The notes under the pieces were generated by a model. It made no database searches and was not told where the DNA came from. It saw only the letters and a program-made list of their open reading frames with translations. DNA of 54,201 nucleotides from an uncultured Staphylococcaceae bacterium (GTDB lineage Bacteria > Bacillota_I > Bacilli_A > RFN20 > CAG-826): NCBI GenBank assembly GCA_964433025.1, contig CAYSPV010000004.1, positions 8,458-62,658 of the forward strand, given 5' to 3'. Positions 13,087 to 39,668 of this stretch are shown one piece after another. The position numbers and the translations under genes are program-made. How positions within the stretch are numbered: position 1 is the stretch's first letter; each line of letters opens with the position of its first letter.

Positions 13087-15054
13087 ATGAAAAAAGCTCT
13101 AGGTGTATTTACCGTTTTACACGCTATAGTGCTTGTGGACTGGATTATTGTTATATGTTGTGCTTTTGCCTTTACAGGTACAAGTGGTGATTTTGCTAAT
13201 AATTTAGCCACTAATGCATCTACATTTTTTAATAATCTAGGAAGTGTATTTACCAATTTAAGTGTATATTTTGGATCAGTTAGTGATTATATCTATCCAA
13301 TTATAGCCTTTATCTTAGTTTGTTTAACCGCAGTGTTAACACTTATTTGGATTATTGTATTAGCTGTTAAAAAACGCCCTGTCTATTTAGCGTTTATAAT
13401 TTTAGTTATTTTAGGATTTTTCCCTGCTATTTGTACACTAGCTAATTTTGATCAATATGTTACATCATTATTCCCAGGTGATGAAATAACTGTGGCTTCA
13501 ACAATTCTAGCTTGGTTAATAGTCATCTTAATGGCCTTAGGTTTAATATTCTATGTCGTATTTTATGTTTTAGGTTTAGCCTATATGTCTAAAAGAAAAC
13601 CCGTATCTGAAATTAAAGAAATTCCTGTGGAATCTCTTGCAGACACTATTCCTGAACCTACTATTGAAGAACCAACAGTAGCCTTTGATGAGCCTTTACC
13701 AGAACCTGCACCTACATTTGTAGAAGGTGTAGAACCTGAAGATGAACCTGCTCAAGAACTTCCAACTCCTGAACCAATTCCAGAAGTTAAAGTTGATGAT
13801 AAAGGAAATATTGATGCAGCAAGTTTAGCCCGTGCTATTAGAGAATCTGTACGTGATATCGTAAGAGATGAACTTGCAAGAGCAGAATTAAATAGACCTC
13901 ATGGACCTGTTCCTGGTCCTAATAGTTCTACTATTACTGGTGCAACCTTTGGTGGACCATTAATCGTCCAATATTTTAATGGTACCGCTACTCCTGTTTA
14001 TGGTCCTTGTGAAGAACCGAAACAAGAAGTAAAACAAGAAGTTAAAGAAGAAACCAAAGTAGAAGAAACTCCAGTAGTAAAAGAAGTGGTTAAAGAAATT
14101 ATTACTGAAAGAGTAGTAGAACCCACTCCAGAACCAACTGTAGAAGAAAAAGTCGAAGAAACTGTAGAAGAAACTCCAGTAGTTAAAGAAACAGTTACCG
14201 AAACAGTCACCGAAACTGTTAGTGAACCTACTCCTGTTGTTGAAGAAACTGTTATTGAAGATAAAGTTGAAGAACCAGTAGTAGAAGAACCAGCACCTGC
14301 TGAAACTCATGTAGTTAAAGAAATTATTAAAGAAACTATTACTGAAAGAGTAGTAGAACCTAATACTGTTAAAGAAACAGTTACTGAAACTGTTACAGAA
14401 AAAGTAGTAGAACCCACTACAACAACAGAAGAAACTGTTAAAGAAACAGTCACTGAAACAGTAACTGAAAAAGTTGTTGAACCAACACCTGAACCAGAAC
14501 CTGTAGTAGAACCTACTCCAGAACCTGTTGTTGAACCAACACCTCAACCAGTAGTAGAACCTGCTCCTACTCCAGTCGTAGTAGCCCCTAGCGAACCAAA
14601 AGAACCTAAAGTTTATGAAAGAATTTCCTTTATTGATAGAATGATTGATTCTGATAAAGAAATGCAAGATAACTACAATATCATTAAAAATGAAATTCTC
14701 TCCTATGGTGTTAAATCTAGAGTATCAAATTCTGGTGATACATTCCGTTTACATAAGAAAACATATGTAAAGATTACTATCGCTGGTAAATCATTAAAAC
14801 TATACTTTGCTTTAGATCCTAATGATTATAAAGATTCCACAATGCCAGTACAAGATGCTGGACATAAAGGTATCTATGCTGAAATCCCATTAGTGTTCAA
14901 AGTTAGAAGTGAACTCTCTATGAGAAGATGTAAAGATTTAATTCAAACAGTCATGGAAAAAGATAATCTTGAACAAGGTGAAGTTGGTAATGTTGACTGG
15001 ATTGAAGATTTAAAAGCTATCTCTTTAGAAAAAACTAAAGATGATGAAGAATAA
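13087..15054 (+). CDS. Repeat-rich membrane protein: N-terminal polytopic domain, E/P/T/V-rich repeat linker, conserved C-terminal globular domain
   Basis: 655 aa. Five or so TM helices (13087-13620). Repeats of the type VVEPTPEP, ETVTETVTE and VVKE(I/V)... (about 14020-14600). Non-repetitive C-terminus YERISFIDRMIDSDKEMQDNYNIIKNEILSYGVKSR.... Confidence 0.8.
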   Translation: MKKALGVFTVLHAIVLVDWIIVICCAFAFTGTSGDFANNLATNASTFFNNLGSVFTNLSVYFGSVSDYIYPIIAFILVCLTAVLTLIWIIVLAVKKRPVYLAFIILVILGFFPAICTLANFDQYVTSLFPGDEITVASTILAWLIVILMALGLIFYVVFYVLGLAYMSKRKPVSEIKEIPVESLADTIPEPTIEEPTVAFDEPLPEPAPTFVEGVEPEDEPAQELPTPEPIPEVKVDDKGNIDAASLARAIRESVRDIVRDELARAELNRPHGPVPGPNSSTITGATFGGPLIVQYFNGTATPVYGPCEEPKQEVKQEVKEETKVEETPVVKEVVKEIITERVVEPTPEPTVEEKVEETVEETPVVKETVTETVTETVSEPTPVVEETVIEDKVEEPVVEEPAPAETHVVKEIIKETITERVVEPNTVKETVTETVTEKVVEPTTTTEETVKETVTETVTEKVVEPTPEPEPVVEPTPEPVVEPTPQPVVEPAPTPVVVAPSEPKEPKVYERISFIDRMIDSDKEMQDNYNIIKNEILSYGVKSRVSNSGDTFRLHKKTYVKITIAGKSLKLYFALDPNDYKDSTMPVQDAGHKGIYAEIPLVFKVRSELSMRRCKDLIQTVMEKDNLEQGEVGNVDWIEDLKAISLEKTKDDEE

Positions 15055-16766: not shown

Positions 16767-16809
16767 TAAATAAATATTTTTTAATTATTTTTAGAAAATT
16801 TTAAAAAAG

Positions 16810-16832
16810 CCTCCTTTAAGTATGTAAGGAGG
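16810..16832 (+). promoter_or_regulatory. Hairpin that pairs the Shine-Dalgarno (AAGGAGG) of the first operon gene with an upstream CCTCCTT
   Basis: cctcctt (16810-16816), a 9-nt loop, then aaggagg (16826-16832). The ATG is at 16842. No convergent gene needs a terminator here. Confidence 0.5.
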
Positions 16833-16841
16833 TCTTAAAAT

Positions 16842-17159
16842 ATGCACAAAGTTGATTATGCAAAACTAAATGTTGCTCAAAAGATGAATCTATTATGTCA
16901 TCAATTTGGAATCTGTTCTCATAATATAGCTTTAGAAAAAGAAACTTTTAGCGATGTTTATTTTATAAAGGTATTAAATAGAGCCTTTAAAAGATTACCA
17001 GAAGCAGGACAAAGATTTATTAATTGTTTTTATTTATTTGAAAACAAACATGCATCTTGGTTTGATAACATGAGTCAAAAAGAAAAAGACTATTTAGATC
17101 GTAGGTATACTAGATTGTTTGTCAAATACGTGGAGGAAATATATGACACTTATCATTAA
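16842..17159 (+). CDS. Small cytoplasmic protein, possible sigma-70 region-4-like / HTH regulator
   Basis: 105 aa with a strong SD. The segment LNRAFKRLPEAGQRFINCFYLFENK resembles the L..LP...R..f.l.y pattern of sigma region 4. The functional call is weak. Confidence 0.5.
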   Translation: MHKVDYAKLNVAQKMNLLCHQFGICSHNIALEKETFSDVYFIKVLNRAFKRLPEAGQRFINCFYLFENKHASWFDNMSQKEKDYLDRRYTRLFVKYVEEIYDTYH

Positions 17160-18141
17160 AGGTGCCGTATTTGTTTCTATATGTGGAGCTTTATATTCTC
17201 CTATTATTAGATATCCGATGTATATGAGTAGTCTAAATCAAATTGGCCCATATACTGAAAGCAGTGGTAAAGTGGAATTAAACTTTTCAGCTTATTCAAA
17301 AGAATATAAAAATGATATTGTTTTTGATTTTTTTGTCGTTGATGAATATGATCCATCTGAATATCGACCAACTTCGTCCACTGGAGAATATTTTGATATA
17401 AATGTCGGTGATGTAGTTAATTTTTCTCTAACTATGGATACTTCTTATTTTGCAAAATATAATCCTTGTAATTTTGCAATAGCAGCGACTGAATATAATA
17501 CCTGGTATTATAATCCAATTGTTTATTTTAAATTATGGTCATATCAAGATTATACCTTTGATATAGCAGATCTAAGAGAAATAGGAGATTTTGAAGCCCC
17601 TTATTTTTATTTAAATATTAAAGATAATGTAGTTAGTTACACTACAGATACATTAAATTTTGCAGGATTTCCTATTGATTTAGAAATGTCTACTTATGAT
17701 ATTTTAGATTTAAGTCAATTTACCTTTTATTATTCTTCTACAGAACTTATTAATGGTGGTACCTTTTCTTTAGTGTTTTTTGACACTGATAATATATTCC
17801 CATATTTAAATATGGGTGGTTTAGTAAATTTAAGTCTTACTCCTGTATTAGTTAATAAACTCACTAATGAGTATACACTTGAATTTGCTAATACGTTTTA
17901 TGTAGATCCTACCACTAATCAGATGTCTTTTACTAAAAGAACTGGTTTTGAAGTCGCGGATGCTTTTTATTTACCAATACATGGAAAAGATTCTTTTGAA
18001 AGTTATACATTAACCTTAAATATTAAAGATTTAGGGGTTAATGATATTAATTATTATTACAACTTTCAATATGCAGCCTCTAAAAACTTATTTGGTAGTT
18101 GTAATGATTCTCAATATTGTGTAGTAGGAGGTATGAAATGA
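17143..18141 (+). CDS. Unknown 332-aa protein with a pilin-like N-terminus (MTLIIKG + hydrophobic helix); candidate large pilin/adhesin
   Basis: GGAGG 5 nt upstream of the ATG at 17143 (the track start at 17119 lacks an RBS). The body is Y/F/T/N/D-rich and looks beta-rich. Overlaps the upstream stop at 17159. Confidence 0.6.
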   Translation: MTLIIKGAVFVSICGALYSPIIRYPMYMSSLNQIGPYTESSGKVELNFSAYSKEYKNDIVFDFFVVDEYDPSEYRPTSSTGEYFDINVGDVVNFSLTMDTSYFAKYNPCNFAIAATEYNTWYYNPIVYFKLWSYQDYTFDIADLREIGDFEAPYFYLNIKDNVVSYTTDTLNFAGFPIDLEMSTYDILDLSQFTFYYSSTELINGGTFSLVFFDTDNIFPYLNMGGLVNLSLTPVLVNKLTNEYTLEFANTFYVDPTTNQMSFTKRTGFEVADAFYLPIHGKDSFESYTLTLNIKDLGVNDINYYYNFQYAASKNLFGSCNDSQYCVVGGMK

Positions 18142-18557
18142 TATCAGCATTTATTGCATTAGTCGTGGGAGTAATATCTTTTCAAACTTTTACTTTAAAT
18201 TATCAAATAAGCGGTGTTAAACGCACCTTAATTAATATGCCAAAATCTATCGTAGAAGTATCAGTAGAAAAACAAGTTGTTTCAGATGTAGAAAGTTTTT
18301 ATATCAATGATGAAACATTTGAAGAATTAAGCAATTATTATTTTGAAGTTAATTTAAGTAAATATGTTTCATCATATACGGTTAGTTATTCATATTATTA
18401 TGCAGACCTTAATAGGGTATGTATTCCTACTAGTACGAGATTACTAGGATGTGATGGAGTTATATTAACTTTAAATTGTAAAATTATGTCTTTATTTGAT
18501 TATGAAGAATCAATGTATTTTGAAATCGTGGAGTATACAAATTTTATATGGATTTAA
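18138..18557 (+). CDS. Unknown 139-aa protein with an N-terminal hydrophobic helix (MISAFIALVVGVISF)
   Basis: ATGA start/stop overlap with the upstream gene (18138-18141), with AGGAGG upstream. Confidence 0.6.
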   Translation: MISAFIALVVGVISFQTFTLNYQISGVKRTLINMPKSIVEVSVEKQVVSDVESFYINDETFEELSNYYFEVNLSKYVSSYTVSYSYYYADLNRVCIPTSTRLLGCDGVILTLNCKIMSLFDYEESMYFEIVEYTNFIWI

Positions 18558-19543
18558 GCAAAGCTTTAGAATATTTAAAATCATCTTTTTTAAGACCTTT
18601 ATTATTAGATGAAGATATTACAGATATCTCTTATAATGGCAAAGATATATATTATCAAAATAATATATTAGGTCGTCAAAAATATGAAATAGAAGTAAGT
18701 AAAACCACAGTGTTTGACTTTTTAAGACAGATCGCAAATCTATGTCAAGAATCCTTTTCTATTTCTAAACCTATTTTAGATGTATCAATTAAAAATTATC
18801 GGTTAAACGCAACATATCTATCTATAGCTAGAAATGATTATGAAGAATGTGTCACATTCTCATTAAGAATAAGTAGAGACCTTTTATATATTAATGATAA
18901 AAACTTTATGCCAAATGATGTTAAAAACTTTTTAATTAACCTAGTTAAAAATAAACAATCTATTATTATTGGAGGTCAAACCTCTACTGGTAAAACCGAA
19001 TTACAAAAATATTTAATTAGACATTTTAAGGCTAACACTAAGGCTATTATTATTGATAATGTTTTGGAGTTAAACACTCTTACTAATTTAGATAATATTG
19101 ACGTCACATGTTGGCAATTTGATAGTTATAAAGATAATGATTTAACACTTTTAATTAAAAATTCATTAAGAAATAATCCTGATTATTTAATAATCGCTGA
19201 ATCTAGAGGCGAAGAGATGTTTGATATATTAACCGCAGCAATGGGAGGCACTCCTATTATTACCACGATTCATGGTGATAATATTCATAATCTTATTCAT
19301 CGAATTATTTCTTTAACTTTATTAAGTAAGAAAAAGTTAACACCTGAATATGTTAAAAGTGATGTTATAAATACATTACATTATTATGTCTTTTTAAAAA
19401 GTCATACAAATAAAAACAATATAATCACTCGTCATGTTGAACAAATAGGTTATATAGATAGTAGTGAGAAGATGACTATTATTTATGACCGTATTAATAA
19501 AATTAATAATTTAGATAAATACAAAATAATTAGTGAGGTATAA
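18548..19543 (+). CDS. Secretion/type IV filament ATPase, CpaF(TadA)/VirB11 family
   Basis: 331 aa. N-terminal ITDISYNGKDIYYQ, Walker A GGQTSTGKTE, YLIIAESRGEEMFDILTAAMGG and a His-box-like TTIHGDN. Confidence 0.8.
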   Translation: MDLSKALEYLKSSFLRPLLLDEDITDISYNGKDIYYQNNILGRQKYEIEVSKTTVFDFLRQIANLCQESFSISKPILDVSIKNYRLNATYLSIARNDYEECVTFSLRISRDLLYINDKNFMPNDVKNFLINLVKNKQSIIIGGQTSTGKTELQKYLIRHFKANTKAIIIDNVLELNTLTNLDNIDVTCWQFDSYKDNDLTLLIKNSLRNNPDYLIIAESRGEEMFDILTAAMGGTPIITTIHGDNIHNLIHRIISLTLLSKKKLTPEYVKSDVINTLHYYVFLKSHTNKNNIITRHVEQIGYIDSSEKMTIIYDRINKINNLDKYKIISEV

Positions 19544-19545
19544 AT

Positions 19546-20262
19546 ATGAAGAAAAAATTAATTGTCGTGGACCTTATTATCATATTATTAGCTACGTTAT
19601 CTAGCTATATCGCTAGTGATAATATTTTTATTGCGTTAGTTATACTTGCAATATATGGTCTTTATTTCTTTATTTTCTTTAATCGTTTTTATGTTAAATA
19701 TGAAAACAATACAAGTAGGTATCATGAATGTTTTCATTTTATAAATGATTATACGATTGCTTTAAGTAATTATGAGTCATTACTAGGGGCATTTGAAGCG
19801 ATTCAAGATAATTTTTCATTATCTTTAAAAAAAGAAATTGAAGGAGTGGAAAATGTCGATATTTTAGAAAAAATCAAGTATTTGCAGAGTTATTTTCCAT
19901 TTCATATGTATTATTTGTTTACTCAAATAATTGAAATTTATGATCGACAAGGTGGAAATATATTAGATATGACTACCTATTTAACTAAACAATCTAGAAG
20001 TTTAGAAGAGCATATAGACGCGGCTAAAAAATATAGGAACACGAAGATATTAGAACTATCTCTATTATGGGGAGCGTGTATTCTAATTTTAATTTTTATT
20101 AGATTTGGCTTAGCACAGTTTTTTGAAACATTAAAAGGTGAACCTATATTTATTATTTGTATCGTTATCTTTTATTTATTCCTTTTAATGTTTATACATA
20201 TTGCATTAAACATCTTATTTAAGATAGATATCAGGAGATTTGCTAAATATGAAAAGAATTAA
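19546..20262 (+). CDS. TadB-like half-size platform membrane protein (single T2SSF-like domain)
   Basis: 238 aa. Two N-terminal TM helices, a cytoplasmic helical domain and two C-terminal TM helices, directly after the ATPase. Confidence 0.6.
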   Translation: MKKKLIVVDLIIILLATLSSYIASDNIFIALVILAIYGLYFFIFFNRFYVKYENNTSRYHECFHFINDYTIALSNYESLLGAFEAIQDNFSLSLKKEIEGVENVDILEKIKYLQSYFPFHMYYLFTQIIEIYDRQGGNILDMTTYLTKQSRSLEEHIDAAKKYRNTKILELSLLWGACILILIFIRFGLAQFFETLKGEPIFIICIVIFYLFLLMFIHIALNILFKIDIRRFAKYEKN

Positions 20263-20917
20263 GTTATATTTTGAATCTTTAAATCTATCTTATAAAAAAG
20301 AATTATCTTTATTTTTAATCACTAATTTGTGTTTAATTAGTATGGCTATTGTAACGTTTATATTATTATCATCTATCTTATTTTTAGCGGTATTTTTAGT
20401 AGTAGATGTAATCGCAAATATTGTGCTTATGATGCGATATAGTGTTATTAAAGATAAAATCTTAAAATCTCATGAAAATGAATTTATATATTTTATCCAA
20501 TATATTGAAATATTTTTATCTAATAACTATAACGTCTATAGTGCTTTAGAAGCGGTTAAAAGTTTTACATCTAATTGGATGCAAGAAAGAATAGATGAAT
20601 TAATTAATGATATTGATAATGATAAATCTATTACTCCTTTTATTAATTTTGCCAAAAACTTTAAAACTCCGATTGTCACTAATGTGATGATAAATATTTA
20701 TCAAATGGTGGAGCAAGGGGAAGATAAAAGTCGTTTACAACAATTTGATTTATTATTTGTTAGATTTTTTGAAAATCATCAAGAAATAGAAACCCTTACC
20801 TTAAAAAAGAAAATGGATAATTTATCCATGTATCCCTTAATAGGCGCGGGAATTATTACCATTATGCTTATTATAGGTGTGGTTTTAATAATGGAGGAAA
20901 TGATTAATGTCTTATAA
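20249..20917 (+). CDS. TadC-like half-size platform membrane protein
   Basis: Same architecture as the preceding gene. The ATG at 20249 overlaps the upstream stop (20262). Confidence 0.6.
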   Translation: MKRIKLYFESLNLSYKKELSLFLITNLCLISMAIVTFILLSSILFLAVFLVVDVIANIVLMMRYSVIKDKILKSHENEFIYFIQYIEIFLSNNYNVYSALEAVKSFTSNWMQERIDELINDIDNDKSITPFINFAKNFKTPIVTNVMINIYQMVEQGEDKSRLQQFDLLFVRFFENHQEIETLTLKKKMDNLSMYPLIGAGIITIMLIIGVVLIMEEMINVL

Positions 20918-21248
20918 GATTTCAATGATTTTATCAATGATATTTGTAGCTTTATTTTTTGTTTTAGGAATAGATTTAATTAACTTACAAATTGCCTATA
21001 CAGAACTAGACCAAAAAGCAATCGCTATTAGTTATGAAATCGCCAAAACTGGAAATCTAACTAGAACCACGATCTTAAATATACAGTTAGAATATGGCGT
21101 TACTTTTACATGTGATAGCAATTGCTCCCCATCTTTTGGTGACATAGTTTTGTTTACTATAAGCGATGTATATGATCCTATTGTTATTAGTAATCAAACA
21201 ATAACCATCTCCATACAACGCACATCAATTATCGGATATTATTCTTAA
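20907..21248 (+). CDS. TadE-like / pseudopilin-like protein
   Basis: 113 aa. N-terminal hydrophobic helix ISMILSMIFVALFFVLGIDLINLQIAY followed by a small beta-rich domain. Overlaps the upstream stop. Confidence 0.5.
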   Translation: MSYKISMILSMIFVALFFVLGIDLINLQIAYTELDQKAIAISYEIAKTGNLTRTTILNIQLEYGVTFTCDSNCSPSFGDIVLFTISDVYDPIVISNQTITISIQRTSIIGYYS

Positions 21249-21263
21249 GAAAGGAGGATGAAA

Positions 21264-21440
21264 ATGTCTGAAATAAAGGGCCAATTATTAGGTATATTAT
21301 TAGTTATTGCTATATTTGGAGTTGTAAGTGCAGCCTTAATAAGCATCTTTAACAATCTTGTAGACACTGTAGCAAGCGAAGTTGATGAAATACAAACATC
21401 AATTATTGCCATAAAAACTGATTTACTAACTTATTATTAA
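21264..21440 (+). CDS. Flp-type pilin-like small protein (58 aa)
   Basis: AGGAGG 7 nt upstream of the ATG at 21264. MSEIKG|QLLGILLVIAIFGVVSAALISIF: a short charged leader ending in Gly, a 22-residue hydrophobic helix, then a short tail. Confidence 0.55.
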   Translation: MSEIKGQLLGILLVIAIFGVVSAALISIFNNLVDTVASEVDEIQTSIIAIKTDLLTYY

Positions 21441-21465
21441 TAAAAAAAATATTAAATAACTATCT

Positions 21466-21497
21466 AAAGAGGGGTGATGCCCTTCTTTATTTTTTTT
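21466..21497 (+). terminator. Rho-independent terminator of the pilus-like operon
   Basis: aaagaggg / cccttcttt stem (one bulge) followed by attttttttt. Confidence 0.6.
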
Positions 21498-22634: not shown

Positions 22635-23537
22635 ATGAATAAACTAGAATACGTAGCAAGATCACTAAGTAGAGGAACAAAAAAAGTTTATGAAACTTAT
22701 GTAATTAATGCTATTTATCAAAAGATCAATAATCCTAATTTAGAGATTGAAACTCAAAAAGGAATAAATCTTGAAAATGGTTATTGCCCTTTAATCGATC
22801 TTTATTTACCTCAATTGAAAATCGCAATTGAAGTTGATGAAGGTTATCACGCTAATGAAGGACAATCTGAGCATGATATTTGGCGAGAAAAATCTATAAA
22901 TAATCAGATTCAAAAATCTTGTGTTATTGATAATATTCAATTTGAAAGAATAGCAGCTTATGATGTTTCTTTAGAAGAATTAAATAAGAGAATAGATGAA
23001 GTAGTTTCTCTTATTCAAAAAAAGATAGAAGAAAGAGTCAATCCATTAGAATGGAAAGATCAACAGGAAAAAATTGAAGAAATTAAAACAAGAGGTTATA
23101 TCGAAGCAGATGATTGTTTTGATACAAATGTACAAATAATAAATATTGTATATGGAAGAAATTTAAGAGGATTTCAGAGGGCATCCTATAAATTATTATG
23201 GTTTCCAGTAATATCCTATGAAGATGAAGAAAAGCAATTATCAAGTAGAGCAACATGGCAAAATATCTTTAATGATACACATACTATAATTTATGAACGT
23301 TCAATAGATGAAAGAATAAATTCAAACAAACAAGAAGGATGTCTTAAGAGACAAAAAGAAGGTAATAAGCGCGTCGTATTTGTACGAGATAGGGATACGT
23401 TTGGAAAAACACGAAAAAGATTTGTAGGTGTTTTTGAAGCAGGCGGATGGGACGATAATAAAAAAGCCGAAATCTGGAAGTGTGTACTTACTAAAATTAA
23501 AATTCCTATAGATGAAGACACTATATGGAAATTATAA
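22635..23537 (+). CDS. PvuRts1I/AbaSI-family-like modification-dependent (type IV) restriction endonuclease
   Basis: 300 aa. The N-terminal Vsr-like PD-(D/E)xK core IDLYLPQLKIAIEVDEGYH is preceded by YVARSLSRGTKKVYETYVINAI. The C-terminal RVVFVRDRDTFGKTRKRFVGVFE segment matches my recollection of the PvuRts1I layout (~293 aa). No search was run. Confidence 0.62.
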   Translation: MNKLEYVARSLSRGTKKVYETYVINAIYQKINNPNLEIETQKGINLENGYCPLIDLYLPQLKIAIEVDEGYHANEGQSEHDIWREKSINNQIQKSCVIDNIQFERIAAYDVSLEELNKRIDEVVSLIQKKIEERVNPLEWKDQQEKIEEIKTRGYIEADDCFDTNVQIINIVYGRNLRGFQRASYKLLWFPVISYEDEEKQLSSRATWQNIFNDTHTIIYERSIDERINSNKQEGCLKRQKEGNKRVVFVRDRDTFGKTRKRFVGVFEAGGWDDNKKAEIWKCVLTKIKIPIDEDTIWKL

Positions 23538-23585
23538 GTTAAATAGAAAAATCAGGAATTTAATAGAACAATTTACATATAAAAA

Positions 23586-23690
23586 ATCAAAAAAATATAA
23601 AATGAAATATCAAAAAAAAGTAAAATGATTTATCAAAAAAATATAAAATGAAATATCAAAAAAAAGTAAAATAGATATTGAAATATCACC
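23586..23690 (+). repeat. Iteron-like array: 46-bp unit x2, itself made of ~23-bp sub-repeats ATCAAAAAAA(T/AG)TAAAATGA(A/T)(A/T)T
   Basis: 23586-23626 and 23632-23672 are essentially identical. Four successive ATCAAAAAAA-initiated units fall at a spacing of about 23 bp, upstream of the ATPase gene. Confidence 0.85.
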
Positions 23691-23721
23691 AGCATCGTAT
23701 ATAATTTTATTAGGAAAAAAT

Positions 23722-25011
23722 ATGATGAAAAAAGGTTATTTTAATAGAATTGCAGATAAGATTTTAGAATCAAAACTTAAAACTTTTGGCGCTGCAAACA
23801 TTGTTGGACCTAAGTGGTGTGGTAAATCTACAACTGCTTTACAACAAGCAAAAAGTTCTATATTGTTACAAAAATCTATAGAAATAGAAAATTTATTATA
23901 TTCAGGTAGAATTGAACCTTATCTTTTATTAGAGGGTGAAAAACCTAGACTAATAGATGAATGGCAAGACGCTCCTTTTATATGGGACGCTGTTAGATCT
24001 TATTGTGATGAAAATAGTGGTCGAGGTCATTTTATATTAACTGGATCTTCTTCTAAATTTGTAACTACTAAACATACTGGTACAGGTCGTATATCTACTA
24101 TGAAGATGTATCCGATGAGTTTATATGAATCAAAAGAATCAAATGGCACTGTTTCTTTAATGAAGTTATTTGATAAAAAAGAAGATTTAAAAAATGGATG
24201 TATTTCTAATTTAAAAAGAAAAGACATTATACACGCTGCTTGTCGTGGTGGATGGCCTGCTAGTGTTTTATTAAAAGATAAAAAAGCTCAATTAGCCATT
24301 GCTAAAGATTATTTTAATCAGATTTATGAAAAAGATATGTTTAGTGTTGATGATGTTAAACGTAATCAAGAAACCATGAAAGCAATATTAAGAAGTTATG
24401 CTAGAAATATATCTACATTAGCTAAAAAGAAAACTATTTTAGAAGATGTAAGTGCTACAAATCCTATAACACAAGCTACGCTTGATAATTATATAGAAAT
24501 ATTAGAAAGACTATATATAGTGGAAGATATTCATGGGTGGTCACCACAGATTAGATCAAAAACCGCGATAAGAAATGGAAGAAAAAGAGAATTTGTAGAT
24601 CCTTCAATTGCAGTCGCGGCTTTAGGTGGTTCACCAAAAATCTATTCAAAAGATTTTAAGAGCTTTGGTTTTATATTTGAAACCCTTTGTATTAGAGATT
24701 TAAGAGTGTATTCATCTGCTTTTAATGGTCATATTTCTTATTATCATGATAATTTAGATCTAGAAGCTGATTGTGTTTTAAGTTTGGACGATGGTAGATA
24801 TGCAGTTATTGAATTTAAATTTGGTGATTTTGAAGTTGATAAAGGTGCTGAAAACCTAAATAAATTAGAATCTTTAATAGATAAATTTAATCAAACTCAT
24901 AACGCTAAAATACGTATGCCTGATTTAAAAATTGTAATAACCGCAGGTGAATATGGATATAAGCGTGATGATGGTGTGTTTGTTATACCTATTGGATGTT
25001 TAAAAGATTAA
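23722..25011 (+). CDS. AAA_14-type ATPase with a C-terminal DUF4143 (PD-(D/E)xK-like) domain
   Basis: Walker A GPKWCGKST, Walker B-like LIDEWQDAP...FILTGSS, and C-terminal GFIFETLCIRDL...DLEADCVL...AVIEFKFG. Confidence 0.85.
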   Translation: MMKKGYFNRIADKILESKLKTFGAANIVGPKWCGKSTTALQQAKSSILLQKSIEIENLLYSGRIEPYLLLEGEKPRLIDEWQDAPFIWDAVRSYCDENSGRGHFILTGSSSKFVTTKHTGTGRISTMKMYPMSLYESKESNGTVSLMKLFDKKEDLKNGCISNLKRKDIIHAACRGGWPASVLLKDKKAQLAIAKDYFNQIYEKDMFSVDDVKRNQETMKAILRSYARNISTLAKKKTILEDVSATNPITQATLDNYIEILERLYIVEDIHGWSPQIRSKTAIRNGRKREFVDPSIAVAALGGSPKIYSKDFKSFGFIFETLCIRDLRVYSSAFNGHISYYHDNLDLEADCVLSLDDGRYAVIEFKFGDFEVDKGAENLNKLESLIDKFNQTHNAKIRMPDLKIVITAGEYGYKRDDGVFVIPIGCLKD

Positions 25012-25039
25012 TTAGTAAATATTTTAATTTAAGGTGATT

Positions 25040-25139
25040 CGACCAAAATAATGCATATGCGACCAAAAAAGTATAATAAATGGTCGTAAAGTATAAATAG
25101 CATATTGTTTTTCTACCAAAAATATGTAATAATTGGTCG
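25040..25139 (+). promoter_or_regulatory. Repeated CGACCAAAA / TGGTCG motifs bracketing -10-like boxes upstream of fic (candidate operators)
   Basis: cgaccaaaa at 25040 and 25060. Inverted tggtcg at about 25081 and 25134. ctaccaaaa at 25113. GACCA-N16-TGGTC spans TATAAT (25072-25077). Confidence 0.35.
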
Positions 25140-25153
25140 AAAGAAGTGAAACC

Positions 25154-26200
25154 ATGAAAACATTTGATTATGAAAAATATATGAAAATGAAGTGGGATAC
25201 TGAGATTTTATCCTATGTTTCTAAAATTCGTGAATATAAAGGTAAACACGAATCGTTTTTCAATATAAATTCTATTGTTTTAGATAGGACAATACAGATC
25301 GCTAAAATGCAAAGTGTTGAATCTTCAAATAAAATTGAGGGGATAGTTATAACAGATAAAAGAATTAAAGACTTATGTTTGAAAAATTCTAAACCAATAT
25401 CTATAAATGAAAAAGAAATAAAAGGATATAAAGATGCTTTAGATTTTATAGATGAAAACTATGATTTAATGCCACTTACTCCTAATTATATATTGCAACT
25501 TCACAAGATGATTTTTGAGGATACTGGTTCCACTATAGGTGGTAAATTTAAAAATGTTCAAAACTATATAAATGAAATACATCAAGATGGAACATCAATA
25601 ACTTTATTTGTTCCCTTATCACCATATTTAACACCAGATGCAGTGGATACAATATGTCAACAATACAATCAAGAAATTGATAAAGGTATATTAGACCCTC
25701 TTATTTTAATTGCGGTATTTATTATTGATTTTTTATGTATCCACCCATTTAATGATGGTAATGGAAGAATAAGTCGATTATTAACTACGTTATTACTATA
25801 TAAATCAAGATATTTTGTTGGTCGATACATTAGTATTGAAAAAAGTATAGAAAAATCAAAAGAAGGATATTATGATGCATTATATCAATCATCACAAGGA
25901 TGGCACGAAAATAGTAATGATCCATTACCATTTATTAAATATTTATTAGGTGTAATTATTGGTTGTTATCGTGAGCTAGATGAAAGAATTGAAATATTAA
26001 AGACTAAAGGTAATGCGCTTGATATAGTAAGAAAAGCAATAGAGAATCGTTATGGTAAGTTAACTAGAAAGGACATTTTAGAACTTTGTCCAACACTAGA
26101 ACGGTCATCAGTTGGCGATGCCTTAAAAAAATTAGTGGACGAAGGAACACTCAAACGTGGTGGTTCAGGCAAAAATACCTATTACTATAGGACAAAATAA
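25154..26200 (+). CDS. fic: Fic-family protein (class II: N-terminal inhibitory motif, Fic core, C-terminal wHTH)
   Basis: Fic motif HPFNDGNGRISR. An N-terminal SxxxEG element (SSNKIEGI) matches the [ST]xxxE[GN] autoinhibition motif. The C-terminal LKKLVDEGTLKRGGSGKNTYY is wHTH-like. The ATG at 25154 is preferred over the non-ATG track start at 25133. Confidence 0.9.
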   Translation: MKTFDYEKYMKMKWDTEILSYVSKIREYKGKHESFFNINSIVLDRTIQIAKMQSVESSNKIEGIVITDKRIKDLCLKNSKPISINEKEIKGYKDALDFIDENYDLMPLTPNYILQLHKMIFEDTGSTIGGKFKNVQNYINEIHQDGTSITLFVPLSPYLTPDAVDTICQQYNQEIDKGILDPLILIAVFIIDFLCIHPFNDGNGRISRLLTTLLLYKSRYFVGRYISIEKSIEKSKEGYYDALYQSSQGWHENSNDPLPFIKYLLGVIIGCYRELDERIEILKTKGNALDIVRKAIENRYGKLTRKDILELCPTLERSSVGDALKKLVDEGTLKRGGSGKNTYYYRTK

Positions 26201-26347
26201 CCAATAATATACTTTGGAACTGAATAATTACATATTTTTTGATATTTTTAGATTAGCGGTAATCCTACAATTATCTTTCAAAAACTCAAAAAAATTTTCA
26301 TTTTTTGAAAGAAAATATGTATTATATAAGTGTAAAGAGGTAAAGAT

Positions 26348-27568
26348 ATGTTATTAGAACGTGACCGTTATTTAAATAAAATTCGTCCATTTTATGATTT
26401 AGATATTATTAAAGTACTAATTGGTTCAAGAAGATCAGGAAAATCTAAAATTATTGAATTAATAATAAAAGATTTAAAACAAAGAGGTGTTAAAGATTCT
26501 AATATTATTTATATAAATTTTGAAAATCTTGATTATTCAGAGCTCACTGATTATAAATCCTTAAATAATTTTATTAAAAATAAAGTCGTGGATTCTAAAA
26601 TGTATTTATTTTTTGATGAAATTCAAGAAGTAAAACAATTTGAAAAAGCTATAAACTCTTTTAGAGTTTCTTTTGATTGTTCTATTTTTATAACAGGCTC
26701 AAATTCTAAAATGTTATCAAGTGAAATATCTAGTGTATTAACAGGAAGAATTATTGAATTTGTTATTTATCCTTTTTCTTTTTTAGAAAGTCAAAATTAT
26801 CGAAAAATGGCAAATACAGAAATAGAAGATGCTTTTTATGATTATCTAGAATTAGGGGGCTATCCTTTAAGATTTGATCTAATGGATAAAGAGTCTACAA
26901 AAGCCTATTTAAATGAGTTATATGATAATATCTGTGTTAAAGATATATTTACTAGAGACATAGAAATTGAAAAAGCTAAATTTTTAAATATTGCTAAATA
27001 TATATTAGTGAACGCTGGTAATGATTTTAATCCAGAAGCTATATATAACTATTTAAAAAGCAATAACAATGGTAAAGAATATTGCTCTATAAAAACTATA
27101 TATAATTACCTAGATAAATTAGAAAAAGCTTTTTTAATAAAACCTATATATAGATACAACATAAGTGGTAAAAAAGTCTTAGCCACAAATCCTAAATATT
27201 ATGCAATTGATAATGGATTAAGAATTATAAATGCTGATTCTAATTTATATGATAGAGGTAAATTTTTAGAAAATGTTATTTGTATAGAGTTACTATCTAG
27301 AGGATATGAAGTATATGTAGGTAAAACATATAAAGGAGAAGTAGACTTCGTGGCATCTAAAAACAATAAAAAATGTTTTATTCAAGTAGCGTATATTATG
27401 GAAAGTCAAGCTACGATAGATAGAGAATTTGGAGCCTTTTCTTGTATAAAAGATCCTTCACCTAAATATGTCTTTAGTCTAGATAAAATAGATATGTCTA
27501 GAAATGGCTATACACATATAAATATCATCGATTTCTTATTAGAAAAGGTTGATATATATTTAACATAA
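26348..27568 (+). CDS. AAA_14-type ATPase with a C-terminal DUF4143 domain (second, divergent copy)
   Basis: Walker A GSRRSGKSK, LFFDEIQEV...FITGSNS, and C-terminal GKFLENVICIELL...GEVDFVA...FIQVAY. Confidence 0.85.
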   Translation: MLLERDRYLNKIRPFYDLDIIKVLIGSRRSGKSKIIELIIKDLKQRGVKDSNIIYINFENLDYSELTDYKSLNNFIKNKVVDSKMYLFFDEIQEVKQFEKAINSFRVSFDCSIFITGSNSKMLSSEISSVLTGRIIEFVIYPFSFLESQNYRKMANTEIEDAFYDYLELGGYPLRFDLMDKESTKAYLNELYDNICVKDIFTRDIEIEKAKFLNIAKYILVNAGNDFNPEAIYNYLKSNNNGKEYCSIKTIYNYLDKLEKAFLIKPIYRYNISGKKVLATNPKYYAIDNGLRIINADSNLYDRGKFLENVICIELLSRGYEVYVGKTYKGEVDFVASKNNKKCFIQVAYIMESQATIDREFGAFSCIKDPSPKYVFSLDKIDMSRNGYTHINIIDFLLEKVDIYLT

Positions 27569-27640
27569 TCAGTAATAATTGGACTTAAATCGTTAGTAAA
27601 AACACTTTTTAATCCTTAAACTATATAAAAAGTTTGTTAC

Positions 27641-27670
27641 AGACTAAAAAATTTTTTAGTCTTTTATTTT
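27641..27670 (+). terminator. Rho-independent terminator (22-bp perfect palindrome + T run)
   Basis: agactaaaaaa|ttttttagtct followed by tttatttt. Confidence 0.65.
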
Positions 27671-27727
27671 CTTTCTTTGAAATGTATAATCTAAACTTAT
27701 TCAATAAACTAACAAAGGAGGAAAAAG

Positions 27728-30700
27728 ATGAAAAAACTTCTCTACTTGCTCCCTATTGTATTTCTATTTACATTAGGAGCGTGTGACATTACTGATATAA
27801 CATCAGAAGTCACATCTACATCTGATGTTGATTCCACATCAACAACAATAATAACTACAACAACATCTGAAGAAGATCCTACCACTACGACGTCTACAAC
27901 AACTACGACGACAACGACTAGTGAACCTGATCCTGATCCAGATCCTGACCCAGACCCAGATCCCGATCCAGATCCCGATCCTGATCCAGACCCAGATCCA
28001 GAACCAGATCCCGATCCAGATCCCGATCCTGAACCAGATCCTGAACCAGATCCCGATCCAGATCCAACTCCTGAACCAGTAGTAAGTCATACTCACGGGG
28101 ATGATTCAATAGAATGGACTGTTGTTTCAGATGACAGTGCTACTTTAAGTGATGGATATTATTTCTTAGATGAAGATGTTAATTCAGAATCTAATATTTC
28201 TATTTCAGGTACTGTTACTTTATGTTTAAACGGTAATGTATTAACTGGTAATGGACAAGGCTCCGTTATTACAGTTGCAGCAGGTAATTCATTAACTATT
28301 TGTGACTGTCAAGAAGGTGCTGAAAACATTGCTAATGAAGTAAATGGTACAACCTATAACAGTGGTGTAATTACTGGTGGATACACTACTAGAGGTGGCG
28401 GTCTTTATGTAAGCGGTACTGTTGTTTTAGAATCTGGTACCATCGCTGGTAATGAAGCTTATGAAAACAGCAGTTCTGATGGTAACGGCGGTGCTGTTTA
28501 TATTTATGGTACCTCTGCATCATTTACTATGAACGGCGGTGCTATTAGTGATAATACAACTCCTGATTATGGCGGTGGTATATATGTTGAACGGGGAACA
28601 TTCACCATAAATGATGGAGAAATATCTTATAATAGTTCTGATTATCAAGGTGGTGGAATATACAATTTCTATGCTACAGTTAATGTCAATGGTGGAGCTA
28701 TTTATAACAACACCGCAACTTATTACGGCGGCGGTATTTATGCTTCAAGTGCCACAATTAATATGACTGGTGGTGAAATTACAGAAAATAGCGTCCTCAT
28801 TAGTGGTGGTGGTATTGAACTTGATATGTATGCTTATTTATACATGAGTGGCGGTACTATTGCTTATAACACTGGTGAAGCTATTGATGCATATGATAGC
28901 AACTATTTCTCCATGACAGGTGGATATATTGAAGGTACTTTTTACAATACAAATTCTTGGAGTACATTCTCAATTGCTGGTGGATATTTTGCAAATAATG
29001 CTTATAATTCACTTAGCCTCAGTTATATAAGAAGCGGTTATATTGCTGTAGACCTCACTGATGGTGAAGGATATGGCGATACTGACTATGATAGTAATTT
29101 CCCAATTGCGGTATATAGTCAAGTAGTCACTACTATTGATAGTAATGTTACTGTTTCATGTGGTGACGCTGATGATTACACTATTGTGGATTCTAATGAT
29201 GTTACTTATCAATATGCTACAGTTGGTTCTGATATTTATACAGATGGCTTACCATCTGAAGCAGGTACATATACTGTTATAGCTACATTTACTACCACAA
29301 TTGATGGTGCTAATAAAACCGTCTATGGTGGTCCAGTTACATTTACATTAACAATTAATGATCATACATTTGATGAAGGAACATGCACTGTATGTGGTGA
29401 AGCTGATCCTTCTTATGTAGCAGAAGATGTAGTAACAGACACTATAACCGCTGAAGGTTTAGGTTTATCTGATACTTCAAATTATACCGATGTTACATAC
29501 ACTGGTGATGAAAGTGGTATTTCATATGTTGGTAATGCAAGATACGACGATGATCCAGTAGGATTTAGAATTCATGCTACTCGTACAAATTCTGGTATTG
29601 CTACACAAAATACTAGTACTTCAACAGTTAATAGTATTACTTTAAATTTCAATTCAAATAATACAAGTAGTAGCTACTATGTTGTTATTTATGCTAGTAA
29701 CAGCACTTATACGAATGCTGGAACCGCGAATGATGATGAAGTTGCTTCTGATAATATTTATATTCCAGTAAGAAATACTGATTCTACATATACCTATACA
29801 TTTACAGATAGCTATACTAATTTCCGTATTGTAAGTGGTAATGGTCAAATTGAATTTTCTTCTATAGTGGTTTCTTGGACCTTAGGAGATGATACATCTT
29901 CTAGTGACCCAGAGCCAGCAACACAAGAAATCAGTGATACATTTAGTGTTTATGATATTTATGGTGATTTCTCAGATTTAACAGGCACAAGTGGTGCAGT
30001 TTATGCTGGTTCTGTTATTGAAGACTTCACTTATGAATGTATTAGACTAGAAGAAGGTTCCAGTTATATCATTTCTACTAGTTCTCCAGGTACTATTAAG
30101 AGTGTTACAATAGATGCCTATGATTTTGATTATGGTGATTATGGTTGGTGCGATATTTATATTTATGCATCAAACGATCCATTCACAAGCTCTAGTGATT
30201 TAACTAGAAGTGCTTATATAACCTCTATAGATCTAACCGAAGGTGGTACTTTAACATATACATTTACTAGTGAATATTCATATGTAGGTATTGCCTGTGA
30301 AGATACCATTGATGGTGTTGGATACATTAATAGTGTTACTTTCACTTGGAACGTTGGTTCTTCTAGTGACTCAGAACCAGAACCAGAACCTGTAATACAA
30401 GATGTCAGTGATACATTTAGTGTTTATGATATTTATGGTGATTTCTCAGATTTAACAGGCACAAGTGGTGCAGTTTATGCTGGTTCTGTTATTGAAGACT
30501 TCACTTATGAATGTATTAGACTAGAAGAAGGTTCCAGTTATATCATTTCTACTAGTTCTCCAGGTACTATTAAGAGTGTTACAATAGATGCCTATGATTT
30601 TGATTATGGTGATTATGGTTGGTGCGATATTTATATTTATGCATCAAACGATCCATTCACAAGCTCTAGTGATTTAACTAGAAGTGCTTATATAACCTCT

Positions 30701-30838: not shown

Positions 30839-30868
30839 AATAATAATCACTAATTAATTTATTTATTA

Positions 30869-30895
30869 ACTCTCAACGCAAAGTTGGGAGTTTTT
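30869..30895 (+). terminator. Rho-independent terminator
   Basis: ctctcaac-gcaaa-gttgggag stem followed by ttttt. Confidence 0.7.
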
Positions 30896-31087
30896 AAATT
30901 GGAGTAAAAAACTTATAATAGTCAAATTTTGTACATGTTTGACTTTGACTCACTAACATTTATATTAAATCTACAAAAAATAGTGTAGATATGCTAAAAT
31001 TATGACGATTTTAAATAAATATCAACGAAAATAGAGATATGTAGATTTTTAACAAAAATAGGATAAAAAGCAAAAGAGGATTCTAAG

Positions 31088-33172: not shown

Positions 33173-33174
33173 TT

Positions 33175-37345: not shown

Positions 37346-37360
37346 TTAGGAGGCAAAACT

Positions 37361-37543
37361 ATGAAATGGGAATATAAAACTGTTAATATTAACGTTCATT
37401 TTAAAACGGGTAGTGGAGCTGAAAAAGCTATTCAAGACCAATGTTCAATTTTAGGTGAATTAGGTTGGGAACTTGTTAATTTCCAATGTTATGATATGTC
37501 AACAAAATTCATCTTAGTTTTTAAAAGACCAATGAAAGAATAA
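37361..37543 (+). CDS. DUF4177-like small protein
   Basis: 60 aa. MKWEYKTV... and ...LGELGWELVNF... match the DUF4177 pattern as I remember it. AGGAGG RBS, 15 nt after hsdR. Confidence 0.6.
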   Translation: MKWEYKTVNINVHFKTGSGAEKAIQDQCSILGELGWELVNFQCYDMSTKFILVFKRPMKE

Positions 37544-39633: not shown

Positions 39634-39668
39634 TTGAATTAAAAAATACATTATAGTAAACTAACCCC

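Follow-up and report, generated by a model that had tools for sequence, protein, structure and literature searches.

Organization and conservation of the operon

The 54,201-nt stretch of DNA analyzed here (the window) carries eight neighboring genes (g1 to g8), all on the + strand and together spanning positions 16842 to 21440, with a hairpin ahead of the first gene and a terminator behind the last:

16809..16834, + strand: leader hairpin, CCTCCTT (anti-Shine-Dalgarno) paired with AAGGAGG (Shine-Dalgarno sequence of g1); fold, -13.3 kcal/mol
16842..17159, + strand: g1, 105 aa, putative transcription regulator of the MG284/MPN403 family, ArpU-like (sigma-region-4-like)
17143..18141, + strand: g2, 332 aa, N-terminally anchored or secreted, all-β, with several β-sandwich-like domains
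18138..18557, + strand: g3, 139 aa, bitopic with an N-terminal transmembrane (TM) segment; homologous to pLS20 gene 36 by position and, weakly, by sequence
18548..19543, + strand: g4, 331 aa, T2SSE-family, hexameric-type secretion ATPase, VirB11-sized and without an N-terminal extension
19546..20262, + strand: g5, 238 aa, TadB-like half-size platform protein with one T2SSF-like domain
20249..20917, + strand: g6, 222 aa, TadC-like half-size platform protein
20907..21248, + strand: g7, 113 aa, pseudopilin-like (TadE/TadF-like), leader M-S-Y-K-x-G/S/A followed by a hydrophobic helix
21264..21440, + strand: g8, 58 aa, candidate major pilin, leader MSEIKG followed by QLLGILLV...
21465..21497, + strand: intrinsic terminator at the operon end, 11-bp stem with 4 GC pairs and then a T-run (stem-loop, 21465-21489)

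These genes run in one direction and overlap or abut: g2 starts at 17143, ahead of the g1 stop at 17159, an ATGA at 18138-18141 joins g2 to g3, and further junctions lie at 18548/18557 (g3/g4), 19543/19546 (g4/g5), 20249/20262 (g5/g6) and 20907/20917 (g6/g7). The initial annotation of this DNA, made from the sequence alone, had described such an eight-gene co-directional operon ending in a terminator near 21466, and both were borne out, the terminator being a strong one (a scan of the region returned three terminator-like sites against 1.1 expected). The synteny that it proposed to check proved extensive. In 82 related loci, drawn from species-representative genomes of uncultured gut and rumen Bacilli (ATPase identity, 39 to 66%), the order gmk (opposite strand), g1 to g8, acpP was kept in 55, with gmk constantly upstream and acpP downstream; most of the other loci were interrupted by contig ends. 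Because both order and flanks recur in 55 of 82 loci, the operon is far beyond chance. It is chromosomal, flanked by housekeeping genes and without type IV secretion system (T4SS) genes, and a related lineage with 46% GC carries a variant without the ATPase.

The hairpin that the initial annotation had noted at 16810 as a boundary is real, but the role of boundary terminator was rejected: it sits in the g1 leader, where it buries the g1 Shine-Dalgarno sequence, and gmk is divergent, its 5' end facing the hairpin. Across 53 loci, 72% of folds had the Shine-Dalgarno sequence paired with bases upstream of it, compared to 48±6% after shuffling of the upstream bases, and the same comparison gave no excess of pairing for the leaders of acpP, g8, g4 and g2. 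The hairpin therefore likely gates translation of g1.

Regulator and N-terminally anchored proteins

The reading of g1 as a sigma-region-4-like protein was roughly right. Twenty-eight of 35 family members matched the NCBIfam MG284/MPN403 model NF045770 (C-terminal domain; best E, 3.8e-20) and 10 of 35 matched ArpU (TIGR01637), while the window copy itself matched NF045770 weakly (0.011, below cutoff). The family is large, with 523 representatives in a 50%-clustered library.

By hydropathy, g2, g3, g7 and g8 have one N-terminal hydrophobic segment each. g2, a candidate adhesin or tip/stalk protein, had no Pfam match; its C-terminal motif G-x-C-x2-S-x-Y-C-x-G-G is kept among homologues, with C320 and C326 nearly invariant. 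Structure prediction and search had been proposed for this product in the initial annotation: an AF2 model built from 15 sequences (pLDDT 74, pTM 0.68) retrieved from the PDB (Foldseek) no proteins other than multi-domain ones, most of them rich in β-sandwiches (streptococcal C5a peptidases ScpA/ScpB, transglutaminases and complement C5; best E, 5e-6; TM score of ∼0.3). g3 was found in 82 of 82 loci and matched no Pfam or NCBIfam family; its family HMM recruited plasmid proteins of 129 to 133 aa from Bacillus thuringiensis and B. subtilis (E, 0.0025 to 0.011).

The secretion ATPase and its split platform

g4 is a T2SSE-family ATPase (PF00437; E, 4.6e-16; 58.9 bits against a cutoff of 24.9). 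The ATPase motifs given in the initial annotation are real, and their residues in Walker A, the Asp/Glu box and the His box are invariant in 26 homologues (G143, T145, G148-K149-T150, A217-E218, R220, E223, T239-T240 and H242). NCBIfam models for VirB11, TadA-type and FlaI proteins all scored under their cutoffs, the best being VirB11 (94.9 bits, far under 250); TIGR03819 (CpaF/TadA) reached 85.5 bits against 373 and NF041000 (ComGA) 52 bits against 300. Among solved structures, archaeal GspE2 of Archaeoglobus fulgidus was the best match (6e-26), with FlaI at 8.5e-22, HP0525 at 5e-22 and CpaF at 6e-19. The g4 family profile scored 193 to 212 bits on “VirB11-like” ATPases of Bacillus conjugative plasmids and 90 to 110 bits on CpaF. 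By this measure the closest annotated relatives of g4 are the plasmid proteins, much nearer than CpaF, and 544 of its 794 plasmid matches were from Bacillus. A CpaF-clade ATPase was rejected on the same scores, so that of the proposed CpaF(TadA)/VirB11 assignment the T2SSE membership stands and the CpaF part does not.

The split TadB plus TadC pair held up. g5 aligned to TadB (hhalign, 87%; E, 4e-6; 193 columns) and hardly to TadC (0.9%), and g6 aligned to TadC (70%; E, 4e-5; 188 columns) and hardly to TadB (1.5%). These profile alignments establish TadB- and TadC-specific homology, and the two proteins are paralogues of each other (87.8%). T2SSF was matched by one of 21 members of the g5 family and was the most recurrent Pfam match in the g6 family (7 of 21 members; best E, 2.3e-4); since the window copies of g5 and g6 had no Pfam match, support for a T2SSF platform is at profile level. 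A homologous Bacillus plasmid protein of g6 is annotated FlaJ (3.7e-23). The two proteins had been described as having the same TM layout, and the layouts are similar, not identical, by hydropathy: g5 has two N-terminal and two C-terminal TM segments, whereas g6 has an N-terminal hydrophobic block (residues 20 to 60), called as one segment although its length fits two, and a single C-terminal TM segment.

Small proteins with conserved leaders

The most likely start of g8 is 21264 rather than 21258, because GGAGG lies 8 nt upstream and 71 distinct homologues share an MSE[IL]KG leader; this start gives the 58 aa of the initial annotation. Within the invariant leader M-S-E-x-K-G/A, K at −2 was invariant in these homologues and −1 was G (66) or A (5); beyond it, +1 was Q (63), T or S, +5 was I, M or V and not Glu, +6 was I, V or L, and F at +12 was invariant. 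The leader is followed by 39 to 67 residues, with a hydrophobic helix and a variable C-terminal tail of Flp-like length. A K-G leader followed by Q, with no Glu at +5, is presumably like the signal peptides that EppA, an archaeal peptidase, removes from pilins. The leader motif is common to g7, g8 and 118-aa plasmid proteins starting “MGELKG...”.

For g7, AF2 predicted a pilin-like “lollipop” (pLDDT 88) with an N-terminal helix of ∼47 residues (2 to 48), a second helix (53 to 63) and a small sheet of three strands. TadF (PF16964) was the top recurrent Pfam family, weakly (4 of 35 members; best E, 2.4e-4). The model had no significant Foldseek match in the PDB, pilins included, and g7 did not align to six TadE/G sequences (hhalign). 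Neither small protein gave a Flp, TadE, N_methyl or Class_III profile match above noise, an hhalign match to TadE or Flp, or the G|FTLxE motif; with Class_III signal and archaeal Pilin_N profiles, the matches of 2 among 150 members (E, 0.12) did not rise above noise. Flp_Fap (PF04964) matched neither g8 nor 50 members of its family, and the G|xxxxEY motif is absent. Of the profile searches proposed in the initial annotation, T2SSE was thus found in g4 and T2SSF in g5 and g6 family members, and TadE and Flp_Fap were not found. Its 113-aa TadE-like protein keeps a pilin-like predicted shape and a weak TadF affinity without a TadE match; its 58-aa Flp-like protein keeps the size of a pilin and a conserved K-G/A leader without the Flp signatures.

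Missing partners and the host

Every open reading frame of ≥100 aa in the window outside the operon was searched against Pfam, except one antisense frame inside the repeat gene at 13087-15054. In agreement with the absences listed in the initial annotation, these frames included no Peptidase_A24, secretin, CpaE/ParA-type ATPase or sortase, nor VirB4 or VirD4. An A24 prepilin peptidase was likewise absent from the 54-kb window and the flanks of the 82 loci (≤7 kb on each side), as were secretin and sortase, and TadZ/CpaE and TadV were absent from the window and related loci. Plasmid VirD4, p028, Tie, toprim and DUF5592 sequences found no real match in the window or the 82 loci (phmmer); nor did these contain VirB4, VirB6, VirB8 or relaxase-region homologues. 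ComEA and ComEC were absent among scanned frames of window and flanks. Type IV filament systems frequently rely on a prepilin peptidase whose gene lies apart from the locus or serves more than one such system (PMC6668835).

At least one of the related loci is from GTDB RFN20/CAG-826, and this family is predicted to be without peptidoglycan; TGA is a stop codon in the window. The suggestion of a probably wall-less, Acholeplasma-type host was roughly right, Acholeplasma as such excepted. The order RFN20 comprises uncultured Mycoplasma-related gut bacteria, many of them predicted to have no cell wall, and in RFN20 and RF39 the genomes are small, with several amino acid biosynthesis pathways missing (PMC7301438).

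A possible minimal filament machine and its alternatives

We consider it somewhat probable that the eight genes specify a minimal type IV filament machine of the monoderm kind, Tad-like in its architecture. The ATPase g4 would dock under a platform of TadB-like g5 and TadC-like g6 and drive membrane extraction and polymerization of the major subunit, the 52-aa mature g8, with pilin-like g7, and perhaps g3, priming or capping assembly. A peptidase whose gene lies elsewhere would cleave g8 and g7 behind their K-G/A and G motifs. The β-sandwich protein g2 may be presented at the filament, or work with it, as an adhesin or stalk, and ArpU/MG284-like g1 could switch the operon on, its own translation gated by the leader hairpin that sequesters its Shine-Dalgarno sequence. 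In the gut or rumen, such a machine would most likely serve adhesion or contact between cells. The operon's hosts are small-genome RFN20-type Bacilli, many predicted to be without peptidoglycan. Several observations argue against this reading: no linked peptidase in the window or 82 loci, no TadZ, no pilin profile match, no Glu at +5, no Foldseek pilin for g7, an ATPase nearer to conjugation VirB11-like proteins and the existence of an ATPase-less variant.

Some of these observations would also fit an operon that makes no filament, with g4 to g6 forming a membrane ATPase complex for another job (g2 secretion or membrane remodeling) and g7 and g8 being small membrane proteins with pilin-like N termini by convergence. 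The missing pilin profile match, linked peptidase and Foldseek pilin, and the ATPase-less variant of the 46% GC lineage, are in line with this, but we regard it as improbable: conservation of the g7 and g8 leader motifs, which have a small residue at −1, is extreme, the predicted shape of g7 is a pilin-like long helix plus sheet, the gene order is that of Tad loci, and no T2SSE plus T2SSF pair is known to us outside the type IV filament superfamily. The kinship of the ATPase opens another route, namely, that the operon derives from a Gram-positive conjugation system of the pLS20/pXO2 type, as a sub-module that was domesticated. The ATPase, platform pair and small anchored proteins would then form a short envelope-spanning pseudopilus/piston or assembly factor. 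Rather than a long pilus for adhesion, it would be a device that transfers DNA or protein upon contact, working by itself or together with transfer genes elsewhere in the genome. In its favor are the nearest annotated relatives of g4 (193 to 212 bits, against 90 to 110 on CpaF), the collinearity of g3 to g7 with pLS20 genes 36 to 40, located within a conjugation operon, and homologues in other Bacillus plasmids interleaved with VirD4 and the p028 protein. Against it, VirB4, VirD4, p028, Tie, toprim and relaxase-region homologues are absent from the window and 82 loci, and the fixed gmk-acpP position among species at 39 to 66% ATPase identity argues for long vertical inheritance; we hold this reading to be unlikely. 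The initial annotation had named an ATPase clustering with conjugative VirB11, with VirB4/VirD4 genes nearby, as grounds against its reading; the first was found and the second was not, in the window or any of the 82 loci. This explanation differs from the filament machine mainly in the cargo delivered.

A DNA uptake (competence) pseudopilus, analogous to ComG and serving small-genome gut Bacilli with reduced biosynthesis, would also give a monoderm a type IV filament architecture controlled by a small sigma-like regulator of its own, an arrangement that may recall ComX/SigH-type control of com genes. Such a use would suit the small RFN20 and RF39 genomes lacking several amino acid pathways (PMC7301438). 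However, the ComGA model reached 52 bits where its cutoff is 300, the platform consists of two Tad-style proteins rather than a single ComGB, g7 and g8 are without G|FTLxE and no ComEA or ComEC was among the scanned frames of window and flanks; we regard competence as improbable.

Comparison with known systems

[quoted passage not shown] ComG systems differ in their two-domain ComGB, ComGA-type ATPase and G|FTLxE pilins. With VirB/D4-type conjugative T4SSs the operon has a VirB11-sized ATPase in common, whereas VirB4, VirD4, VirB6 and VirB8 are absent around it; T2SSF-type partners are, to our knowledge, not part of VirB systems. Archaeal Epd-like type IV pili are linked to it by GspE2, the best solved-structure match of g4, but the host here is bacterial and the platform is split Tad-fashion.

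Monoderm Tad/Flp systems (type IVc; Carboxydocella pCCELLA01 and Bifidobacterium breve Tad) share more: a T2SSE ATPase, separate TadB-like and TadC-like proteins with one T2SSF domain each (238 and 222 aa here, in the order TadA-TadB-TadC), small pilin/pseudopilin genes next and no secretin. Carboxydocella pCCELLA01 has the same order of ATPase, TadB-like, TadC-like, pseudopilin-like and small pilin genes. Unlike these systems, the window has no TadZ/CpaE, TadV/CpaA, Flp motif or Flp_Fap match, its leaders have just 6 residues, its ATPase lies outside the CpaF clade, its candidate pilin gene is last and g1 to g3 are extra.

The initial annotation held that the operon matches no described system, a view that overlooks the conjugative plasmid pLS20 of B. 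subtilis. By family HMM, its genes 36 to 40 are homologous to and collinear with g3 to g7 (g3-36, 4e-4; g4-37, 2e-65; g5-38, 1.2e-7; g6-39, 3.9e-8; g7-40, 8.9e-6), supporting five of six positions in a 36-to-41-like set; gene 41 corresponds to g8 by position and size alone, with no detectable similarity and no K-G leader. Genes 36 to 41 encode a 126-aa N-terminal-TM protein, the ATPase (402 aa, against 331 aa for g4), proteins of 267 and 245 aa, a 120-aa N-terminal-TM protein and a 47-aa single-TM protein. Gene 37 is listed as a putative VirB11 and genes 36 and 38 to 41 as “Unknown,” and the pLS20 family is stated to encode no pilus homologues (Val-Calvo et al. 2021, PMC8557374). Other Bacillus conjugative plasmids carry scattered homologues, interleaved with VirD4 and the p028 protein. 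g1 and g2 are without counterpart on pLS20-family plasmids, and the pLS20 module sits inside a T4SS operon that also encodes VirD4, VirB4 and VirB6/8 homologues and the Tie adhesin, whereas the window operon stands alone on the chromosome. Genes 36 to 40 of pLS20 are the nearest relatives of the module.

Organization and genomic context of the operon

The window has a GC content of ~28%, and TGA serves in it as a stop codon, since g2 terminates in an ATGA overlap (18138-18141). The eight operon genes (g1 to g8) are so tightly packed that all junctions either overlap or leave gaps of at most ~15 nt.

Features of the operon
16809-16834, g1 leader hairpin, CCTCCTT paired with the g1 Shine-Dalgarno AAGGAGG and sequestering it
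16842-17159, + strand, g1, 105 aa
17143-18141, + strand, g2, 332 aa
18138-18557, + strand, g3, 139 aa
18548-19543, + strand, g4, 331 aa
19546-20262, + strand, g5, 238 aa
20249-20917, + strand, g6, 222 aa
20907-21248, + strand, g7, 113 aa
21264-21440, + strand, g8, 58 aa
21465, terminator, 11-bp stem and T-run, 3' of g8

The initial annotation had reported a hairpin at 16810 as an operon boundary. The hairpin exists, but it lies in the divergent gmk/g1 intergenic region and pairs with the g1 Shine-Dalgarno rather than delimiting the operon. When g1 leaders from 53 loci were folded sequence by sequence against shuffled controls, the Shine-Dalgarno was base-paired to upstream sequence in 72% of folds (shuffled: 48±6%), with a mean dG of -7.8 kcal/mol (shuffled: -6.0±0.3 kcal/mol). 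No comparable excess of pairing was found in the leaders of acpP, g8, g4 and g2. For the g1 leaders aligned with MAFFT, RNAalifold returned no structure owing to register problems. The hairpin is possibly a translational switch for a regulator gene.

Homologues of the g4 ATPase number more than 1,300 in metagenomic protein collections; the NCBI entries from Bacilli/Firmicutes MAGs, where they give a name, call them “CpaF/VirB11 family protein,” “pilus assembly protein CpaF” or “hypothetical protein.” The other seven operon products are “hypothetical” or nameless in public records. When one genome per species was scanned, 265 relatives of the ATPase emerged; the 80 best of these and two known beforehand made up a set of 82 loci, which lie in MAGs of uncultured Bacilli from gut, rumen or faeces with varying labels (Bacilli, Bacillales, Erysipelotrichaceae, Mollicutes; a few names are plainly mis-binned). 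By iterated HMM searches on ORFs, the order gmk(-) g1 g2 g3 g4 g5 g6 g7 g8 acpP was recovered in 55 of the 82, the remainder being mostly interrupted by contig ends. Judged from this retention of gene order, the operon appears to be a core chromosomal locus that is inherited vertically. A prophage origin was rejected, as matches among phage records amounted to just 11, all distant.

One related locus came from UBA4951, which the PMC7301438 supplement places as a genus in family CAG-826 of the GTDB order RFN20. Peptidoglycan is predicted to be absent in RFN20 families CAG-826 and CAG-288, TGA is read as a stop codon in RFN20, and RFN20-type Bacilli have been reported as a major uncultured gut lineage in humans and domestic animals. 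It is plausible that the host of the window is wall-less. No mur or pbp genes occur in the window, 54 kb being too short to judge the cell wall; cdaA (DAC domain) adjoins a glmM-like gene of the phosphoglucosamine mutase family at 4332-6456.

Elsewhere in the window, a defence-type island (22635-41570) lies just downstream of tRNA-Asn and tRNA-Glu and comprises a PvuRts1I-like/SRA endonuclease, two AAA_14/DUF4143 ATPases, a Fic protein, a type I R-M system (HsdM, HsdS, HsdR) and an AbiEii-like AAA_21 ATPase. Two comparison loci carry other genes at the equivalent position (L002 and L089; in L089 a resolvase, methylases and a ResIII helicase). The gene at 13087-15054 encodes a membrane protein of 655 aa in which long repeats rich in Pro/Glu/Thr/Val are combined with a conserved C-terminal domain; it had no Pfam match, is found in the same neighbourhood in L002, and its repeats produce a spurious 235-aa antisense ORF (13960-14667). 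Two large ORFs lacking a real family assignment, at 27728-30838 (1036 aa, acidic repetitive N-terminus) and 51919-53931 (670 aa), may encode surface proteins.

Assignment of the operon products

Scanned singly against Pfam and NCBIfam, the seven non-ATPase proteins yielded nothing usable, and assignments required member-by-member scans of whole families. g4 is a T2SSE ATPase whose Walker A, acidic-box and His-box residues are invariant; it matches no curated equivalog. Among solved structures its best match was archaeal GspE2 of A. fulgidus, followed by HP0525 VirB11, FlaI and CpaF, and the g4-family HMM scored 193 to 212 bits on “VirB11-like” ATPases of Bacillus conjugative plasmids, compared with 90 to 110 on canonical CpaF.

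g5 and g6 are paralogues (hhalign 87.8%). Neither matched T2SSF as a single sequence, and a homologue search with g5 alone found four proteins. Across homologues, T2SSF was the commonest recurrent Pfam family for g6 (7/21) and was seen once for g5. Compared by hhalign with TadB and TadC from three annotated Tad loci on plasmids, the g5 family matched TadB (87%, E 4e-6, 193 columns; TadC 0.9%) and the g6 family matched TadC (70%, E 4e-5, 188 columns; TadB 1.5%). This reciprocal pattern acts as its own control and supports a split TadB plus TadC platform in canonical order, as far as profile comparison can indicate. Searches of PDB sequences with g5, g6, g7 and g1 profiles gave nothing significant.

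The AF2 model of g7 is confident (pLDDT 88); it has an N-terminal helix of ~47 residues, a short helix and a three-stranded sheet, and gave no significant Foldseek match in the PDB. TadF tops the recurrent Pfam matches of the g7 family, in just 4 of 35 members (best 2.4e-4). Over 71 distinct g8 sequences the N-terminus is fixed as M-S-E-[ILF]-K-[G/A] followed by [Q/T/S]-L-L-G, Phe at +12 is invariant, and a variable tail leaves 39 to 67 residues after the leader; neither a Flp motif nor Glu at +5 is present in g8, and no pilin profile matched it. Comparison by hhalign of g7, g8 and g3 with one another and with a TadE/Flp set gave no match, a weak negative given that the set was tiny and the alignments contained ORF extensions.

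The “sigma-region-4-like” guess of the initial annotation for g1 was roughly borne out: MG284/MPN403 matched 28 of 35 family members (best 3.8e-20), with ArpU-like similarity in 10 of 35. g1 is thus a member of the MG284/MPN403 family of Mycoplasma genitalium and M. pneumoniae. MG284-MG286 presumably sit immediately 5' of MG287, which encodes acyl carrier protein; the g1...acpP order in the window would then be reminiscent of theirs. The g2 model shows an N-terminal anchor followed by several β-sandwich-like domains, with a conserved C-terminal Cys pair, and its Foldseek matches in the PDB were solely multi-domain, mostly β-sandwich-rich proteins (e.g., streptococcal C5a peptidases, transglutaminases and complement C5). 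A lineage of 46% GC has a variant operon (L094:7001-10346; also L093) headed by a g1 homologue (2e-21), with g2-like, g3-like, g5-like (6.8e-5) and g6-like (0.005) genes and a 95-aa protein bearing an N-terminal hydrophobic segment; it lacks the ATPase and g8, and is flanked by mgtE and tyrS, not gmk and acpP.

A related module on Bacillus conjugative plasmids

In a search against plasmids, the best matches to g4 were the “VirB11-like” ATPases of Bacillus conjugative plasmids (pLS20 family, pXO1- and pXO2-sized B. anthracis plasmids and B. cereus-group plasmids), and g4-like ATPases were also found on Listeria, Enterococcus and Lactococcus plasmids. In pNARUSE, of the pLS20 family, the ATPase neighbourhood is collinear with g3-g8 (L085:7383-11441; L083 and L084 are the other plasmid loci of this observation).

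Genes of the pNARUSE module and their operon counterparts
Gene 36, 126 aa, g3, HMM E 4e-4
Gene 37, 402 aa, g4, HMM E 2e-65
Gene 38, 267 aa, g5, HMM E 1.2e-7
Gene 39, 245 aa, g6, HMM E 3.9e-8
Gene 40, 120 aa, g7, HMM E 8.9e-6
Gene 41, 47 aa, two copies, g8, matched by position and size only

The earlier statement that the operon resembles no described system overlooked this collinearity of g3-g7 with homologous pLS20 genes 36-40. Two further Bacillus plasmids have their homologues dispersed among VirD4 and p028 protein genes: one is g6-like (annotated “FlaJ”), one g5-like, one g3-like, and one is a 118-aa “MGELKG...” protein that matches both g7 and g8 profiles. Given the homology of pLS20 genes 36-40 to g3-g7, Bacillus conjugative plasmids carry an unrecognised module of an ATPase, TadB/TadC-like and pilin-like proteins, of which the window operon is thus a free-standing chromosomal version. 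Val-Calvo et al. (PMC8557374) list pLS20 genes 36 and 38-41 as “Unknown” and state that the pLS20 family encodes no pilus homologues. The pLS20 literature holds a pilus-like structure to be absent from Gram-positive conjugation systems, yet pLS20 has this very combination of ATPase, platform and pilin-like genes.

Interpretation and comparison with known systems

The best-supported reading, which we hold with slightly better than even confidence, is that the operon encodes a minimal Tad-like type IV filament machine. g4 would be its ATPase and g5/g6 its platform, with g8 and g7 as filament subunits, g2 and g3 as accessory surface proteins and g1 as regulator. The main rival, which we consider unlikely, is a domesticated conjugation sub-module working as a short pseudopilus or transfer device, separated from the filament reading chiefly by what the machine delivers. 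A Pfam scan of every window ORF outside the operon that reaches 100 aa, except the antisense ORF inside the repeat gene, found no VirB4, VirD4, A24 peptidase, secretin, CpaE/TadZ-type ATPase or sortase, and TadV and plasmid VirD4, p028, Tie, toprim and other query sequences had no match in the window or the 82 loci. A bolder proposal, which we advance tentatively and regard as rather doubtful, is that g3-g8 and pLS20 genes 36-41 form an unrecognised ancient branch of the type IV filament superfamily, one that assembles ~50-aa subunits into a pilus with no dedicated peptidase or TadZ.

Were this ancient-branch proposal true, these would be the first pili of their lineage for the Mollicutes-related, possibly wall-less RFN20 gut bacteria, and in the plasmid copies Gram-positive conjugation would have its long-missing pilus-like mating structure. 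Type IV pilus genes have been considered absent from classical Mollicutes, which even supplied the negative set for training a pilin predictor (Imam et al. 2011). For RFN20, a surface-filament operon that is core and vertically retained would be a main handle on attachment to hosts or partners, and homology to pLS20 genes 36-40 provides a testable hypothesis in a cultivable model. Literature on RFN20 pili, Tad in Mollicutes, pLS20 pilus/Tad and MG284/MPN403 yielded no description of the operon.

The module is otherwise known only within Gram-positive conjugation operons. For membership of the type IV filament superfamily, two of four defining parts, the ATPase and the platform, are supported; pilins and peptidase make up the other two. 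A canonical tad locus of the horizontally acquired kind seen in Bulleidia is a different system (13 genes, including tadV, pilA and tadZ). The operon does not qualify as Tad proper, on account of its ATPase clade and its lack of the Flp motif, TadZ and TadV: it is like Tad in layout, yet is not to be classed as Tad.
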